This document shows, piece after piece, positions 9,166 through 63,688 of a stretch of DNA of 64,000 nucleotides. The notes under the pieces are model-generated. The model was not told where the DNA came from. It searched no databases and saw nothing but the letters and a program-made list of their open reading frames with translations. Numbering within the stretch: position 1 is the first letter of the stretch; each line of letters starts with the position of its first letter. Made by a program: the position numbers and the translations under genes. The stretch comes from Methanocella sp. PtaU1.Bin125 (GTDB lineage Archaea > Halobacteriota > Methanocellia > Methanocellales > Methanocellaceae), in NCBI GenBank assembly GCA_002067315.1, contig MVRA01000187.1, positions 577-64,576 on the forward strand, in the 5' to 3' direction.

Positions 9166-9280
9166 CTTGGCGCTCCTGGCTACCTGGCGCTCTTGGCGGG
9201 CGTGACATGGGTCGCATTGACATGATAAGGGATGTATCGCTCTTGTTGTACCGGCTATGCGACTCCTGTCACGCTCAACG
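9166..9280. repeat. CCTTGGCGC-family palindromic intergenic repeat (right arm truncated)
   Basis: CTTGGCGCTCCTGGCTACCTGGCGCTCTTGGCGGGCGTGAC...GTCGCAT ... ATGCGACTCCTGTCACGCTC. Homologous to the elements at 11290, 14132 and 47336. Confidence 0.8.
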
Positions 9281-9284
9281 TCTA

Positions 9285-9950
9285 TTAACGCATGGCGTGA
9301 GGCCGGTACCGCTCGCGGTATTTCTTTTCAGTGCTCGCGCGCTGGCTGACGATCTCTTCCCGGGTGTACCGGCACAGGGCGGTCTCCAGTCTGATCAGGT
9401 CGATATCGTGTTCCCTGGCATACTCCTTTAAATCGTCGATATCCAGGGTGTTCATCAGCTCCCGGACCCTCGGCGCAGGCTCGGGGTTCGCCTTCGGCCA
9501 GACCGCGCGCATGTCCCGGAGGAAAACGAACGCGGCAACCGGGTCCAGGCCTTTTCCGAGGCTCCTGACCCGGCGTTCGAGGTCTTTGCTGTCCTCGGAC
9601 ATATCGTACAGCCTGCTGAGCTTCCCGTCGTAACGTTTCAACAGGTCGCCGAAGGCGTCGACGATCTCGCCGGCAACGGTGGAGCCATAGCGCGTGTACC
9701 CGTTCTTCTCGAGGACCCTCATGATCTGCTCCCGCCCCGCCTCCTCGATGGCTGCGGGACTGACCTGGCCGCGGTGCTCCAGCGTCTCAAAAGAACCGAG
9801 GGCCGCCTCCTCCGGCAACGGCCGCGAGTAAAGTATAGCGGCGAGCAGCCACTTCGCGTATGCCGAATCCCCCTTGCTCAGGTCGATGGATAGCATCTCA
9901 GAGAGGGGCTTGCCGTATTTCTTGACCAGATTGCCGACGTCAACGCTCAT
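9285..9950 (-). CDS. Helix-hairpin-helix (endonuclease III-related-like) protein, paralog A
   Basis: 221-aa ORF. Clear paralog of 10566..11198 (shared blocks DGKLSRLY, DSKDLERR.R.LGKG, FLRDMR.VWPKA, AREH.IDL.RLETAL). The LGKG..PV....FLRDMR segment resembles HhH-GPD-type motifs. The family assignment is tentative. Confidence 0.6.
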   Translation of the reverse strand: MSVDVGNLVKKYGKPLSEMLSIDLSKGDSAYAKWLLAAILYSRPLPEEAALGSFETLEHRGQVSPAAIEEAGREQIMRVLEKNGYTRYGSTVAGEIVDAFGDLLKRYDGKLSRLYDMSEDSKDLERRVRSLGKGLDPVAAFVFLRDMRAVWPKANPEPAPRVRELMNTLDIDDLKEYAREHDIDLIRLETALCRYTREEIVSQRASTEKKYRERYRPHAMR

Positions 9951-10040
9951 CGATACTGGATGTCCCCGCCGGGCTAAAACGGTTACCTGCGTAAACTGCG
10001 CATAATCGGCTCATCCCGCTCTGTAGTTACAAACGGTAAA

Positions 10041-10540
10041 TGTTCCGGTGTCTATTCAACAGGTTGCCATGGACAGCGCATGCGCGCCCGGGCGGACGGC
10101 CGCTATTCCACGAGACTCGCTTGATCAAGAACAGTTTTTCACATGCAGGCAATGAAATGGGCCTTGTTTCGGGAGCATAGCGACGGGTGCGACGAAACGC
10201 GACGGGTGCGACGTTTCTCGAAGAACGATTTACTGGTTATCGTTTAACAGACGTCGTGCCCGTCGCGTTTCGTCGCGTCGTCGCGGGTATACCGTCCGTC
10301 GAATTGCCTGTACGGGGCTGCGACGAATGCTCCGCTGTGGCCAGGCGCAGTACTGATTCCCGCAACGACCGCGACGAAACGCTACGAACGCGACGTTTCT
10401 CGAAGAATGATATGACAATCCGTTATCCTTTAACAGTCGTCGCGCCCGTCGCGATTCGTCGCGGGAATGCAGTCCTGCGCTAAGCCTCCGCAAAGGCTAT
10501 TCCGGAAGCCTGAACAGGACTTACAAGGAACACCTGAACA
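10041..10540. mobile_element. MITE-like non-autonomous element, copy 1 (TIRs plus two long internal hairpins)
   Basis: Ends TGTTCCGGTGTC ... GAACACCTGAACA are inverted repeats. The whole ~500 bp aligns with 40625..41109. Contains two ~25-bp GC-rich stems, e.g. 10189-10213 pairs with 10252-10276. Confidence 0.75.
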
Positions 10541-10565
10541 GTTCCACAAACGGCGGGCTCCGATA

Positions 10566-11198
10566 CTAATGCGCTTCCACGAGGTGGCTCCTTCTGACGT
10601 TTCTCGCGTACCTGTGTAGCGCTGTCTCCAGCCTCACCAGGTCAATGCCGTGCTCTCTGGCATACGCCTTCACGTCGCTAATGCCGAGGTCAGAAGCCGC
10701 CTGCTTAACGTCAGGCACGAGCGGCGGATCAGCCTTCGGCCAGACGTTCCGCATGTCGCGGAGGAAGATTTCGACAGTCACCGGCCCGATGCCCTTGCCC
10801 AGCTCCCGGATGCGACGCTCCAGGTCCCGGCTGTCGGCCGATGCCTCGTAGAGCCTGCTCAGCTTGCCGTCGTACTCTTTCAGAAGGTGCTCAGAAATGG
10901 CCAGCAGCCGGTCCGCCGTGCTCTCGTCATACCGCCGGTACCCGCCTTCGCCGAGCAGATTGACCAGCCGGTTCCAGCCCGCCTTTTCGATCGCCACGGG
11001 GCCCGTGAGGCCATGGGCCTCGAAAACCCGGTAGGTCTTCGTGGCCGACTCTTCACGGATGGGCTTCGCGTAGAGAAAAGCGGCCAGGAACCACTTGAAA
11101 TACGCCGGATCGCCTTCCAGCAGGTCGATGCCGAGCATCTCCGAGTACGGCTCGCCAAGCTCTTCGATAAGCTTCCGGATTTCATATCCTGTGGCCAT
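10566..11198 (-). CDS. Helix-hairpin-helix (endonuclease III-related-like) protein, paralog B
   Basis: 210-aa ORF, paralogous to 9285..9950 along its full length. Confidence 0.6.
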   Translation of the reverse strand: MATGYEIRKLIEELGEPYSEMLGIDLLEGDPAYFKWFLAAFLYAKPIREESATKTYRVFEAHGLTGPVAIEKAGWNRLVNLLGEGGYRRYDESTADRLLAISEHLLKEYDGKLSRLYEASADSRDLERRIRELGKGIGPVTVEIFLRDMRNVWPKADPPLVPDVKQAASDLGISDVKAYAREHGIDLVRLETALHRYARNVRRSHLVEAH

Positions 11199-11289: not shown

Positions 11290-11432
11290 CTTGGCGCTCC
11301 TGGCTACCTGGCGCCCTTGGCGCGCGTGACAGGGGTCGCATAGCCTATACAACAATCCTGACGCAAGCCTTGTATAGGAATTCGACTACTGTCACGCTCG
11401 CCAAGGGCGCCAGGTAGCCAGGAGCGCCAAGG
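11290..11432. repeat. CCTTGGCGC-family palindromic intergenic repeat (complete, face-to-face arms)
   Basis: Left arm CTTGGCGCTCCTGGCTACCTGGCGCCCTTGGCGCGCGTGAC (11290-11330). Right arm GTCACGCTCGCCAAGGGCGCCAGGTAGCCAGGAGCGCCAAGG (11391-11432). The arms are near-perfect reverse complements. Confidence 0.85.
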
Positions 11433-14131: not shown

Positions 14132-14243
14132 GCGCGCGACAGGAGTCGCATTGCCTTTACAATAATTCTGCAGTAAACCTTGTCTGGTCAATTCGACTAC
14201 TGTCACGCTCGCTAGGGGCGCCGTGTAGCCAGGAGCGCCAAGG
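14132..14243. repeat. CCTTGGCGC-family palindromic intergenic repeat (left arm truncated)
   Basis: GCGCGCGACAGGAGTCGCATTGCC ... GTCACGCTCGCTAGGGGCGCCGTGTAGCCAGGAGCGCCAAGG. The right arm matches 11391-11432. Confidence 0.8.
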
Positions 14244-18429: not shown

Positions 18430-18468
18430 CATGCTTTTATTAAACACTGCAGTCTATTCTGTATAAAA

Positions 18469-19530
18469 GGGACTGTTGCAAAATTAGGTAGCAAGTATAT
18501 TGGCATCTGAGCCGTCATCGTTTTTATGACTAGTAAAAACGGATGTGTTGGCTGGCAGATGCCGGTTTATTGTTTTGATTGTCAATGTAAAATACTTTCT
18601 GACCCTGTCATCGAGGTGCTGGAGTCGGTGGACTGGCGCCAGTTCTCGTTCCTAGAACGTTACAAGGGCAGGGGCAGGCGTCGTGTTCATAACCGGATCG
18701 GTTTGTTGCGGGCTCTTTTATACATGAAGCTCGCGGGGATTCCCAGCGTCCACGAGCTATTACGTGTGTTGGCGCGTGATCCGTATAAAATGAAGATTCT
18801 TGGCCTTGAACGTCTGCCCAGTGATAGCGTGTTCAGCAGATTCAAACGAGAACTGGGAAAGAGCATAGACCGGCTAGTATCATTGATAGCTGGCAAGCTC
18901 CATGAACTGGATCCGGACATGTTTGTCAAGCTGGGTGCCGACAGTACGAAGCTCGAGGCGTGCAAGAAAGATAGACAGTCCGGTTGGGGCTTTGACCATA
19001 TCGACCGGCGTTTCTATAAGGGATACAAGGTCCACTTGTTGTATGATACAAGGCTGCTGGTGCCCGTTTGTTTCGCGGTGACCAGTGCTAGTGTGCATGA
19101 TAACCTGGTGCTTCGCAGACTGGTAGGAAAGCTAGGAGCGGGGATATTGAAAGCAGCCGGACTCTTCCTTGATCGTGCTTACGATAGTCGGGCGAACGTC
19201 GAGGATTTCGCCCGTGCCGGAGTAACAGTGATCAACAGGAAGAATAAGCGAAATGCGAAGAATGTTAAGGGAAAATATCGTTTACAGGACTATTGCCAGG
19301 TCCACGGGAACAGGCTGAACCATTTATATAAAACCAGGAACGATTGCGAAGTGACAAACAGCCTTTTAAAAGAACGTCTCGGCCTTCAAAAGAAAAAGAC
19401 GAAAGGCATTATCAGAAACCGGGTGAAAGCCGGATTGAGCATACTGGCCAGACAAATCCAAGTACTACACCAGCTTTTACAAGAAGCCGACCCTCGGACG
19501 ACCATCATGAACTAATTATGCAACAGCCCC
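18469..19530 (+). mobile_element. Insertion sequence, IS4/IS5-type (DDE transposase), with 7-bp flanking direct repeat
   Basis: Imperfect terminal inverted repeats GGGACTGTTGCAAAATTAG (left) and CTAATTATGCAACAGCCCC (right). TATAAAA occurs directly outside both ends (18462-18468 and 19531-19537). Single transposase ORF inside. Confidence 0.85.
18526..19515 (+). CDS. IS4/IS5-family DDE transposase
   Basis: 329-aa ORF. DDE_Tnp_1-like blocks (GADSTKLEA, YKGYKVHLLYD, LDRAYDS) and the Y-x2-R-x3-E-x6-K signature (YKTRNDCEVTNSLLK). Confidence 0.85.
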   Translation: MTSKNGCVGWQMPVYCFDCQCKILSDPVIEVLESVDWRQFSFLERYKGRGRRRVHNRIGLLRALLYMKLAGIPSVHELLRVLARDPYKMKILGLERLPSDSVFSRFKRELGKSIDRLVSLIAGKLHELDPDMFVKLGADSTKLEACKKDRQSGWGFDHIDRRFYKGYKVHLLYDTRLLVPVCFAVTSASVHDNLVLRRLVGKLGAGILKAAGLFLDRAYDSRANVEDFARAGVTVINRKNKRNAKNVKGKYRLQDYCQVHGNRLNHLYKTRNDCEVTNSLLKERLGLQKKKTKGIIRNRVKAGLSILARQIQVLHQLLQEADPRTTIMN

Positions 19531-19614
19531 TATAAAACATAAAAGTTCGTGACCTGTTTGTCGAATCTGCCGGTCGGGCCCGTAATACCTTATTATCCTG
19601 CAGCTGGGGCCCGT

Positions 19615-40571: not shown

Positions 40572-40624
40572 CCGCGCCGCCCGGCGGGGGCGCGATCCCG
40601 GGAGCGCGACTTTTTATTTGTAAT

Positions 40625-41109
40625 TGTTCAGGTGTCTCTTCAACAGGTGGCCATGGCCAGCGCACGCGTATGCGAGCGGACGGCCGCCAGTCCATGAGAC
40701 TTGCTTAATGAATAGTTTTTCACGTGCAGGCAATGAAGATGGGCCCTGTTTCGGGGCCTGTCATATTGATCCTCGCGACGAACGCGACGTTTCTCGAAGA
40801 ACGATTAACTGGTTATCCTTTAACAGTCGTCGCGCCCGTCGAATTGCCTGCACGAGACTGCCGACGAATGCTCTGCTATGGCCAAGCGCAGTACGTATTC
40901 TCGCGACGGGCGCGACGAAACGCGACGGGCGCGACGTTTCTCGAAGAATGATATGACAATCTGTTATCCTTTAAATGTCGTCGCGCCCGTCGCGATTCGT
41001 CGTCGGACATCAGCAGATGTCCGCGTCGTCGCGAGAATGCAGTCCTGCGCTAAGCCTCCGCAAAGGCTATTCCGGAAGCCTGAACAGGACTTTCAAGGAC
41101 ACCTGAACA
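40625..41109. mobile_element. MITE-like non-autonomous element, copy 2
   Basis: TIRs TGTTCAGGTGTC ... GACACCTGAACA. Aligns throughout with 10041..10540 and includes the same two hairpin modules. Confidence 0.75.
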
Positions 41110-41121
41110 GTTACTTTTATT

Positions 41122-41535
41122 TTACCCTTCCCAGACGATGCACATGCCCGGCCGGGCCTGCGACCGGGCCCGGAACCCGAACTGCTCGTAGAACGGCGCG
41201 ACGCCGCGGGCCGCCATCAGGCTGATCATGGTCCCCTTCCGGGCATGCGCAGCGACGTACGCCATGATCGCGCCCATTATCTTGCTGCCGATCCCCTGTC
41301 TCTGCATATCCGGCCGCACGATGACGTCCACGATCAGGAAATGGCAGCCGCCGTCCCCGACCACCCGCCCGAACCCGATCAGCTGCCCGTCGGCGTAAGC
41401 ACAGACGGAGTAGAGCGAGCGCGCCAGCCCGACCCGGGCCGCCCGCTCGTCGATGGCGTCCCACCCCGCTCCGGCCCGGAACGCCAGGTAGTCGTCCAGG
41501 TCCGGGACCCGGTCAACCAGTGTACAATCGGTCAT
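41122..41535 (-). CDS. GNAT-family N-acetyltransferase
   Basis: ATG at 41535. Acetyl-CoA motif VRPDMQRQGIGSKIM. Confidence 0.8.
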   Translation of the reverse strand: MTDCTLVDRVPDLDDYLAFRAGAGWDAIDERAARVGLARSLYSVCAYADGQLIGFGRVVGDGGCHFLIVDVIVRPDMQRQGIGSKIMGAIMAYVAAHARKGTMISLMAARGVAPFYEQFGFRARSQARPGMCIVWEG

Positions 41536-47335: not shown

Positions 47336-47456
47336 GTCACGCTCGCCAAGGGCGCCAGGTAGCCAAGGGCGCCAAGCCTTTATAGATATTGTGATATGGC
47401 CTTAACTAATCAGTCCTTGGCGCTCTTGGCTCCCTGGCGCCCTTGGCGAGCGTGAC
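47336..47456. repeat. CCTTGGCGC-family repeat, two arms in back-to-back orientation
   Basis: GTCACGCTCGCCAAGGGCGCCAGGTAGCCAAGGGCGCCAAG (47336-47376), a ~38-bp spacer, then CCTTGGCGCTCTTGGCTCCCTGGCGCCCTTGGCGAGCGTGAC (47415-47456). Wider imperfect dyad spans about 47215-47545. Confidence 0.8.
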
Positions 47457-63369: not shown

Positions 63370-63371
63370 AA

Positions 63372-63688
63372 GTCGCCAAGCGTCCAAGATGAGCCGCCAA
63401 GACGCCACTGTAGAAAATAAGAGGCGCCAAGGCGCCAAGTCTTTTTTTATGTTTAAGACGCCAAGCGTCCAAGAGGAGGGGCCAAGACGCCACTGTAGGA
63501 AAAAAGAGGCGCCAAGGCGCCAAGTGTTTTTTAGTAAAAAGATACCAGATAGCTAAGTTGCCGTATAAGGGACACATGCGTAGCATCTTGGAGTCTTAGA
63601 TACTTGAACATAAAAATTACACTTGGCGCCTTGGTGTCTCTTATTTTCTATAGTGGCGTCTTGGTACCTCTTCTTGGACGCTTGGCCC
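63372..63688. repeat. GCCAAG-rich repeat cluster: two direct ~70-bp copies plus one inverted copy
   Basis: Copy 1 at 63372-63440 and copy 2 at 63456-63526 (…GCCAAGCGTCCAAGA…GCCAAGACGCCACTGTAG…AGAGGCGCCAAGGCGCCAAGT). Inverted copy at 63620-63688 (CACTTGGCGCCTTGG…CTATAGTGGCGTCTTGG…CTTGGACGCTTGGC). Confidence 0.85.

Follow-up and report, generated by a model that had tools for sequence, protein, structure and literature searches.

The window analyzed here, a 64-kb stretch of DNA (contig C187:577-64576), belongs to a 3.24-Mb genome that was assembled in 219 contigs and has a G+C content of 59.8%. It contains two copies of a repeat, copy A at 10036..10545 (plus strand, 510 bp; G000:C187:10612-11121) and copy B at 40620..41114 (plus strand, 495 bp; G000:C187:41196-41690). 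An earlier note on this DNA had described two stretches that align over their full length, and this was borne out, as the copies could be aligned from end to end with a mean column identity of 86%, interrupted by two large indels, one 36 and the other 29 columns long. This match is far beyond chance. Both copies are real, and an alignment of 17 copies with their flanks placed the true ends 5 bp farther out on each side than the coordinates first given for them. Terminal inverted repeats (TIRs) had likewise been noticed and are present, with an actual length of 17 bp and a start 5 bp outside the ends reported before. No ORF was shared by copies A and B, as had been claimed. Copy A separates a tandem pair of paralogous genes on the minus strand (9285-9950 and 10566-11198), lying 20 bp after one of them and 86 bp before the other, and copy B occupies the site between the convergent dnaJ and GNAT genes. 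The placement of both copies between these genes had been described correctly; a Pfam search of both paralogous genes flanking copy A, which had been called HhH-like, recognized no family.

The left TIRs of the two copies can be written together as GTAA(A/T)TGTTC(C/A)GGTGTC. In copy A, which according to the 17-copy alignment and the module map has the two-hairpin architecture L-H-S-H-R, the left TIR GTAAATGTTCCGGTGTC (10036..10052, plus strand) carries two mismatches to the consensus GTAATTGTTCAGGTGTC, and the right TIR (10529..10545, minus strand) reads GGAACTGTTCAGGTGTT when reverse-complemented in the TIR comparison. The left target-site duplication, TACAAACG (10028..10035), matches positions 10545-10552 (CACAAACG) at 7 of 8 bases; the duplication is thus recognizable with a one-base offset from the right copy ACAAACGG (10546..10553), at the mutated right end of the element. 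The first hairpin, H1 (10180..10284, plus strand), is made up of a 5' arm with GCGACG words (10180-10214), a loop (10215-10250), and a 3' arm (10251-10284), and when folded as DNA it formed 26 perfect pairs and 6 outer pairs (-45.1 kcal/mol; z, -7.6). A spacer module, S, located by an nhmmer profile search (10285..10344, plus strand), lies between this hairpin and the second one, H2 (10345..10480, plus strand), which has a long, interrupted stem (-39 kcal/mol; z, -4.9).

Copy B is of the same two-hairpin form, with its first hairpin truncated. Its left TIR, GTAATTGTTCAGGTGTC (40620..40636, plus strand), shows no mismatch to the consensus, and its right TIR (41098..41114, minus strand), GTAACTGTTCAGGTGTC when reverse-complemented, is identical to the terminus of an IS66-family element of Methanocella paludicola. 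The two target-site duplications, TTTTATTT at 40612..40619 and TTTTATTT at 41115..41122, match perfectly, and the right one reaches into the GNAT stop codon (41122-41124, minus strand). H1 (40776..40841, plus strand) has lost most of its 3' arm to a deletion, as seen in the 36-column alignment gap, leaving about 12 pairs (z, -2.3). Accordingly, the earlier description of two hairpins with 25-bp stems per copy holds for copy A and fails for copy B. The H2 hairpin of copy B (40901..41034, plus strand) is long and stable (-53.1 kcal/mol; z, -7.7) and includes a mini-hairpin, GGACATCAGCAGATGTCC, at 41004-41023. This 18-nt mini-hairpin was observed at the same spot of the 3' arm in many hairpin modules, in both of the MITE families described below, and other modules were without it.

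With copy A as the query, 82 matches were obtained in the whole genome, which were resolved by BLAST and nhmmer into approximately 77 to 84 loci, many of them at contig ends. The family to which the window copies belong, here called F1, was dispersed about 28 times in the genome, as 18 complete copies inside contigs and as fragments at many contig ends. Where the earlier note had named, as grounds for dismissing its own reading, just two copies derived from a segmental duplication, or ends not conserved among further copies, this check revealed many more than two copies, with differing flanks and conserved ends. The 17-bp TIR GTAAYTGTTCAGGTGT was present at both ends of the 18 complete copies; in the 17-copy alignment, the left end GTAATTGTTCAGGTGTC and the right end GACACCTGAACAGTTAC defined it, and 56 termini with no more than 2 mismatches were found in the genome versus 0 for a reversed control pattern. 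The target-site duplications are 8 bp long, perfect in 12 of the 18 complete copies and with at most 1 mismatch in 14 of them, and the target was different at every site, AT rich, and mostly intergenic (flanks, 38% G+C versus 59.8% for the genome). TIRs, 8-bp duplications, a lack of coding capacity, and 18 dispersed copies with different flanks substantiate the earlier proposal of a non-autonomous transposable element, and further support came from four near-identical deletion derivatives with different duplications and from an autonomous IS with the same ends in a relative. That the element had not been described before also seems right for F1, as a full-text literature search for Methanocella together with miniature inverted-repeat found nothing.

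F1 copies range from 282 to 510 bp, carry no gene, and are assembled from the modules L (~135 bp), H (~113 bp, one or two), S (53 bp, between two hairpins), and R (72 bp). The spacer S gave 22 profile matches in the genome (nhmmer), always between hairpin modules. The commonest form is L-H-R (~340 to 370 bp); both window copies belong to the L-H-S-H-R form (~500 bp), two copies have the form L-R, and a 310-bp form is without nearly all of L, just ~14 bp of the left end being retained. Since the hairpin-less L-R copies keep stumps of the arms, they arose by internal deletion rather than representing an empty ancestor. These subfamilies also differed in divergence: pairwise identities were 87.5 to 93% among four compared copies of the two-hairpin form, 88 to 96% among six copies of L-H-R group a, 96.5 to 98% among three copies of L-H-R group b, and 99.4 to 100% among four copies of the 310-bp form, which have four different perfect duplications. 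The near identity of the 310-bp copies at four sites indicates that they moved recently and that little beyond the termini was needed. Taken together, the subfamily identities and the duplications of the 310-bp copies indicate that F1 was active over a long period, until very recently, and we read the two-hairpin form of the window as the oldest and most diverged F1 form. F1 itself was not found in 40 relatives, seven of the same genus among them, and is confined to one Methanocella species. A scan for its terminus across 400 genomes of the phylum was mostly at chance level, with only M. paludicola (G010) and a methanogen of another family (G327) being informative. In a search of relatives for an empty site with the joined flanks of copy B, alignment was obtained in dnaJ only, and the GNAT side was not conserved.

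The search for an autonomous IS with the same TIRs, which the earlier note had proposed, led to IS66-family elements in these two genomes. In M. paludicola, an exact 17/17 match to the terminus, GTAACTGTTCAGGTGTC, heads an element with DUF6444 (E, 5e-12) and DDE_Tnp_IS66 (E, 4e-25) domains that is disrupted by an IS256-type insertion. The IS256-type insertion was itself rejected, its ends being unrelated. In G327, a 1646-bp IS with the termini GTAATTATTCAGGTATC and GTAATTATTCAGCTACC, a 14/17 match, is flanked by the 8-bp duplication AAAAAATT and encodes DUF6444 and DDE_Tnp_IS66 (E, 6e-53). Two features are typical of the IS66 family (ISfinder), an 8-bp duplication and inverted repeats starting with GTAA; both are present in F1 and were seen directly in the autonomous IS66-family elements, among them that of G327. 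Because IS66-family elements in other methanogens bear the F1 terminus, F1 was filed as an IS66-type MITE. Beyond this 17-bp terminus, F1 had no sequence in common with the IS66 elements found; it is the shared termini only that suggest movement of F1 by an IS66-family DDE transposase. In the genome of F1 itself, PF03050, the DDE domain of IS66, had no match, and no long multicopy IS emerged when the genome was compared with itself; tblastn detected as the only IS66-family relic the last 58 residues of a transposase, followed by the degenerate right end ...GGCTGAACAGTTAC (C168:9298-9513). The IS4/IS5-type IS in the window (18462-19537) was rejected, its termini GGGACTGTTGCAAAATT being unrelated. 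There is no intact IS66 gene in the assembly, and yet a very young subfamily exists; the enzyme behind the young 310-bp copies could have been encoded by an unassembled copy, could have been lost very recently, or could have been another enzyme acting by cross-mobilization.

The hairpins of F1 recur in a second MITE family of the same genome, F2, which has about 33 copies and ISL3-type ends. The F2 ends, GGTTCTTCTGCGTTTTTCGGATC and GATCCCAACAATGCAGAAGAGTC, accounted for 66 termini in the genome and are accompanied by 8-bp AT-rich duplications. What F1 and F2 have in common, and what was seen at about 30 loci besides those of F1, is a block comprising the hairpin, a leader of ~35 nt (AATGAAATGGGCYTTGTTTCGG...), and the trailer GCAGTCCYGCGC. 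Each F2 end differs by one mismatch from the corresponding end of a 1292-bp ISL3-family IS of a congener (G003), which encodes a 416-aa transposase (PF01610; E, 3e-73) and is flanked by the duplication ATTATAAT. An apparently intact ISL3-family IS is also found in the genome of F1 and F2 (C127:1-1318); its protein is 57% identical to that of the G003 element and its termini, GACTCTTCTCCACTTTTGGGATC and CCTGCTTCTCCGGTTTTCGGATT, are similar to the F2 ends, making it a candidate mobilizer of F2. A derivation of F2 from the IS6 family, suggested by its GGTTCT start, was discarded, as PF13610 was absent and the ends match the ISL3 element. M. paludicola has about 25 ISL3-type MITEs of 423 to 452 bp, the hairpins of which are ~80% identical to the arms of its own PDDEXK_3 cassettes. 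Together with F1 and F2, these MITEs, which have another type of hairpin, show that DDE-type ends enclosing a nuclease-cassette hairpin recur as a design in the Methanocellaceae.

Several further loci with features of these elements were observed. F2 copies or the ISL3 IS lie in or beside the AT-rich loops of GCCAAG-type hairpins at C185:~5400, C139:~2777, and C127:~1318, and so hairpin loops seem to be favored targets of ISL3-type insertion. An 1844-bp element of M. paludicola (L099; G010:C1:1215339-1217182) combines ISL3-type termini and the 8-bp duplication AAAACAAT with a DDE_Tnp_1 (IS4/IS5-like) ORF of 387 aa and may have arisen by nested insertion or represent a chimeric IS. In a repeat of a congener (L032 and L034; G004), CGCAGAG word arrays lie on both sides of a leader (ATGAAAATYGGCCCTGTTTCGG) that shows homology to the F1 left module, in its 3' half. 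The short motif match in that genome was rejected as an F1 copy because it is a different repeat, with CGCAGAG words around the homologous leader; the occurrence of the leader there indicates that it is older than the F1 family.

The arms of the H modules follow the pattern GCGACG-nnn-GCGACG-AAAC-GCGACG-nnC-GCGACG opposite its complement, and arms of this type were also found around a gene. At C175:152-565 (minus strand), a 137-aa PDDEXK_3/GxxExxY gene (PF13366; E, 1e-39; TIGR04256; E, 5e-38) lies between H-type arms, in an F2-type locus with an ISL3-type terminus in which the ~37-nt loop of H is replaced by ~600 bp holding the nuclease gene. A TATA-like sequence, CTATATAAAAA, was noted inside this loop about 45 nt before the ATG. 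The sole other PDDEXK_3 homologue of the genome (C40:10853-11266) is located inside a long inverted repeat of GCCAAG words, and about 49 gene-less hairpin loci of this GCCAAG/CTTGGC palindromic family stand alone in the genome, without DDE-type ends. Five hairpins of the GCCAAG type, with arms that match the C40 cassette, lie in the window (9166-9280, 11290-11432, 14132-14243, 47336-47456, and 63370-63686), and two of them lie on either side of the paralogous genes between which copy A is inserted. Among the Methanocellaceae PDDEXK_3 genes examined, 17 of 22 lie between inverted arms of phased words (30 to 254 bp), versus 1 of 400 random windows of the genome of F1; the words in these arms include GCCAAG, GCGAAG, GGAGGT, CACAGAT, and GTACAC. 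The gene-plus-arm units form discrete repeats whose boundary is the outer edge of the arm, as exemplified by a 644-bp unit with 98.6% identity at two sites, and in the PDDEXK_3 tree the proteins group by the word class of their arms. One clade of the tree (L084, L089, and L096, from G005, G007, and G001) lacks the flanking inverted repeat, and two of its three genes have a host-like G+C content of 0.54, compared to 0.32 to 0.45 for most others; these are possibly domesticated copies. The function of the PDDEXK_3/GxxExxY family is listed as unknown (PMC3424549), and no paper describing repeat-armed GxxExxY nuclease cassettes was found in the literature. The H modules represent, without the gene, the inverted arms found around a PDDEXK_3/GxxExxY gene, and we conclude that F1 is a new MITE family, unusual for its nuclease-cassette hairpins.

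The explanation that we favor, and that we consider distinctly probable as a whole, is that F1 is an IS66-type MITE that was moved in trans, captured a hairpin once, and spread it as a passenger. F1 would have been mobilized by a single-gene IS66-family transposase (DUF6444 plus DDE_Tnp_IS66), presumably by the usual DDE cut or copy followed by staggered strand transfer. As only a C-terminal relic of such an enzyme remains in the genome, the source would be either a copy missing from the fragmented assembly or one lost very recently. The body of F1, with one or two hairpin modules and their arms of phased GCGACG words, is not derived from an IS. We infer that the hairpin was captured into the MITE body once, probably from the ISL3-type family, and would then have traveled as a passenger of DDE transposases. 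The variation in length and form, with zero, one, or two hairpins, inverted loops, and truncated arms, would be attributable to the instability of long palindromes and to recombination between repeated modules. In this regard, 10 of 29 F2 copies and 0 of 12 F1 copies had the loop in the opposite orientation with respect to the element ends, as scored from the end motifs of the loop, the strand assigned by nhmmer being unreliable here; recombination of one arm with the other would yield such an inversion.

In an alternative reading, the hairpin modules are independent mobile units that were moved by the PDDEXK_3/GxxExxY nuclease and entered the IS66- and ISL3-type MITEs separately as nested insertions. 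Such a history would fit the finding of one and the same module in two MITE families whose ends are unrelated, the parallel design in M. paludicola with its different hairpin, the discreteness of the gene-plus-arm units up to the outer arm edge (the 644-bp unit with 98.6% identity at two sites), and the occurrence of the GCCAAG family at ~49 loci without DDE-type ends. However, F1 and F2 have in common not just the hairpin but also the ~35-nt leader and the trailer GCAGTCCYGCGC, which points to the transfer of a larger block. Furthermore, neither a duplication nor an insertion scar was found beside the H modules inside the MITEs, the hairpin-less copies are deletions, every H module found is in a MITE-type context, and every movement that can be dated has the 8-bp duplication of DDE-type ends. 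We consider it improbable that the nuclease moved the hairpins into these MITEs. A related view, which we hold to be possible although on the unlikely side, keeps the transposition by DDE enzymes and treats the phased-word GxxExxY hairpins as a portable module that was repeatedly picked up and amplified by unrelated DDE-type MITEs. Under it, the putative nuclease would act in trans on ~95 hairpins and yield loop inversions, deletions, and duplications. Pick-up of hairpins by DDE-type MITEs is seen with different hairpin types in two Methanocella species, and one of the two PDDEXK_3 genes of the genome is GCGACG armed. If true, this would amount to a system with three partners, the nuclease, the hairpin, and a borrowed transposase, and would explain the spread of gene-less GxxExxY arms without the nuclease being a transposase. 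Least credible of all, and in our view close to excluded, is the reading of the window copies as a segmental duplication or as REP/REPIN sequences that depend on a Y1 (RAYT) transposase. The repeats are palindromic and the genome does have one Y1_Tnp gene (C218), but there are no GCGACG words near it, and the flanks of all copies differ, each copy having its own duplications. Moreover, the 8-bp duplications and 17-bp TIRs of F1 are foreign to REP/RAYT systems; REPINs are not known to have either.

Retention of the hairpins as RNA, whether as stable small RNAs, processing sites, or intergenic terminators, with the transposon features being secondary, was also considered; a structured intergenic RNA family had been the second possibility raised in the earlier note. 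Folded as single strands, the intact hairpins are indeed of very high stability (z, -4.9 to -7.7), and the insertions adjoin gene ends, copy B at the GNAT stop codon and copy A 20 bp and 86 bp from its neighbors. Against this, an Rfam search gave no family match, with a best score of 22.6 bits versus a threshold of 70, and the covariance check of the stems across 32 aligned hairpins revealed no pairing above that of shuffled controls beyond a difference of 90.8% versus 90.1% of stem cells. Changes on both sides of the stem were observed in just 6 of 796 cells. The variable stem positions are the triplets of the 5' arm between the GCGACG words, and these were unpaired in 13 to 15 of the 32 copies and were not compensated. 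With no compensatory stem change, a structured RNA is not supported; since the words are conserved rather than the pairing, the pattern is better explained by recognition of DNA by a protein, or simply by common descent, than by selection for an RNA fold. The hairpins are, moreover, freely lost, truncated, duplicated, or inverted among copies, and we judge it very unlikely that they are kept for an RNA function.

As a MITE, F1 is mostly ordinary and extends the known range of archaeal mobile DNA in a routine way. Its copies and those of F2 are found at many contig ends of the assembly, and those beside gene ends can alter termination or expression. Of more general significance is the PDDEXK_3/GxxExxY family, which is very large, has no known function, and has genes that are typically framed by inverted word arrays. 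F1 and F2 provide a clean case in which gene-less arrays have demonstrably moved, because each insertion has an 8-bp duplication. Since the H hairpins carry the duplications of the MITEs, their documented spread is due to IS66- and ISL3-type transposition and not to the nuclease, and this bounds the idea of the nuclease as a transposase. One nuclease gene and ~95 cognate hairpins, with loop inversions as a possible read-out, also offer a test system.

The architecture of F1 is reminiscent of the pneumococcal BOX elements, which are modular (boxA-boxB(n)-boxC). Both have conserved end modules around a variable number of internal modules; F1 is set apart by clear TIRs and duplications, by a transposase family that can be identified, and by palindromes of much greater length. 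A small enzyme gene framed by its presumed substrate repeat, with the repeat dispersed in tens to hundreds of copies, is likewise known from the Ssn nucleases with their NTS repeats (PMC11893778) and from REP/REPIN sequences with RAYT. The folds of those enzymes are GIY-YIG or HUH, in contrast to PD-(D/E)XK, their repeats are short single motifs and not phased arrays, and any action of PDDEXK_3 on the arms is, by comparison, putative. Also close to F1 are IS66-derived MITEs (of the single-transposase, ISBst12-like group), which resemble it in being short and without a gene, in having 17-bp TIRs that start with GTAA and an 8-bp duplication, and in occurring as many dispersed copies with AT-rich intergenic targets. 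F1 departs from these in that its body did not arise by internal deletion of an IS: the match is limited to the 17-bp termini, hairpin modules of other origin make up the interior, and the cognate transposase is represented in the assembly by a relic only. The ISL3-family MITEs, that is, F2 and the 423- to 452-bp elements of M. paludicola, share with F1 the hairpin module, the leader, the 8-bp duplication, the target preference, and the arrangement of DDE-type ends flanking a nuclease-cassette hairpin, and they differ in their termini (GGTTCTTCTGCGTTTTTCGGATC) and in having an intact-looking ISL3 transposase in the genome of F1 and F2. Finally, with the repeat-armed GxxExxY (PDDEXK_3; PF13366) cassettes, F1 and F2 have in common inverted arrays of short words phased at 9 to 10 nt and the coexistence of a gene-bearing copy with many gene-less hairpins, the protein tree following the word type; what sets F1 and F2 apart is that their gene-less hairpins are embedded in DDE-type MITEs and carry the duplications of these elements.
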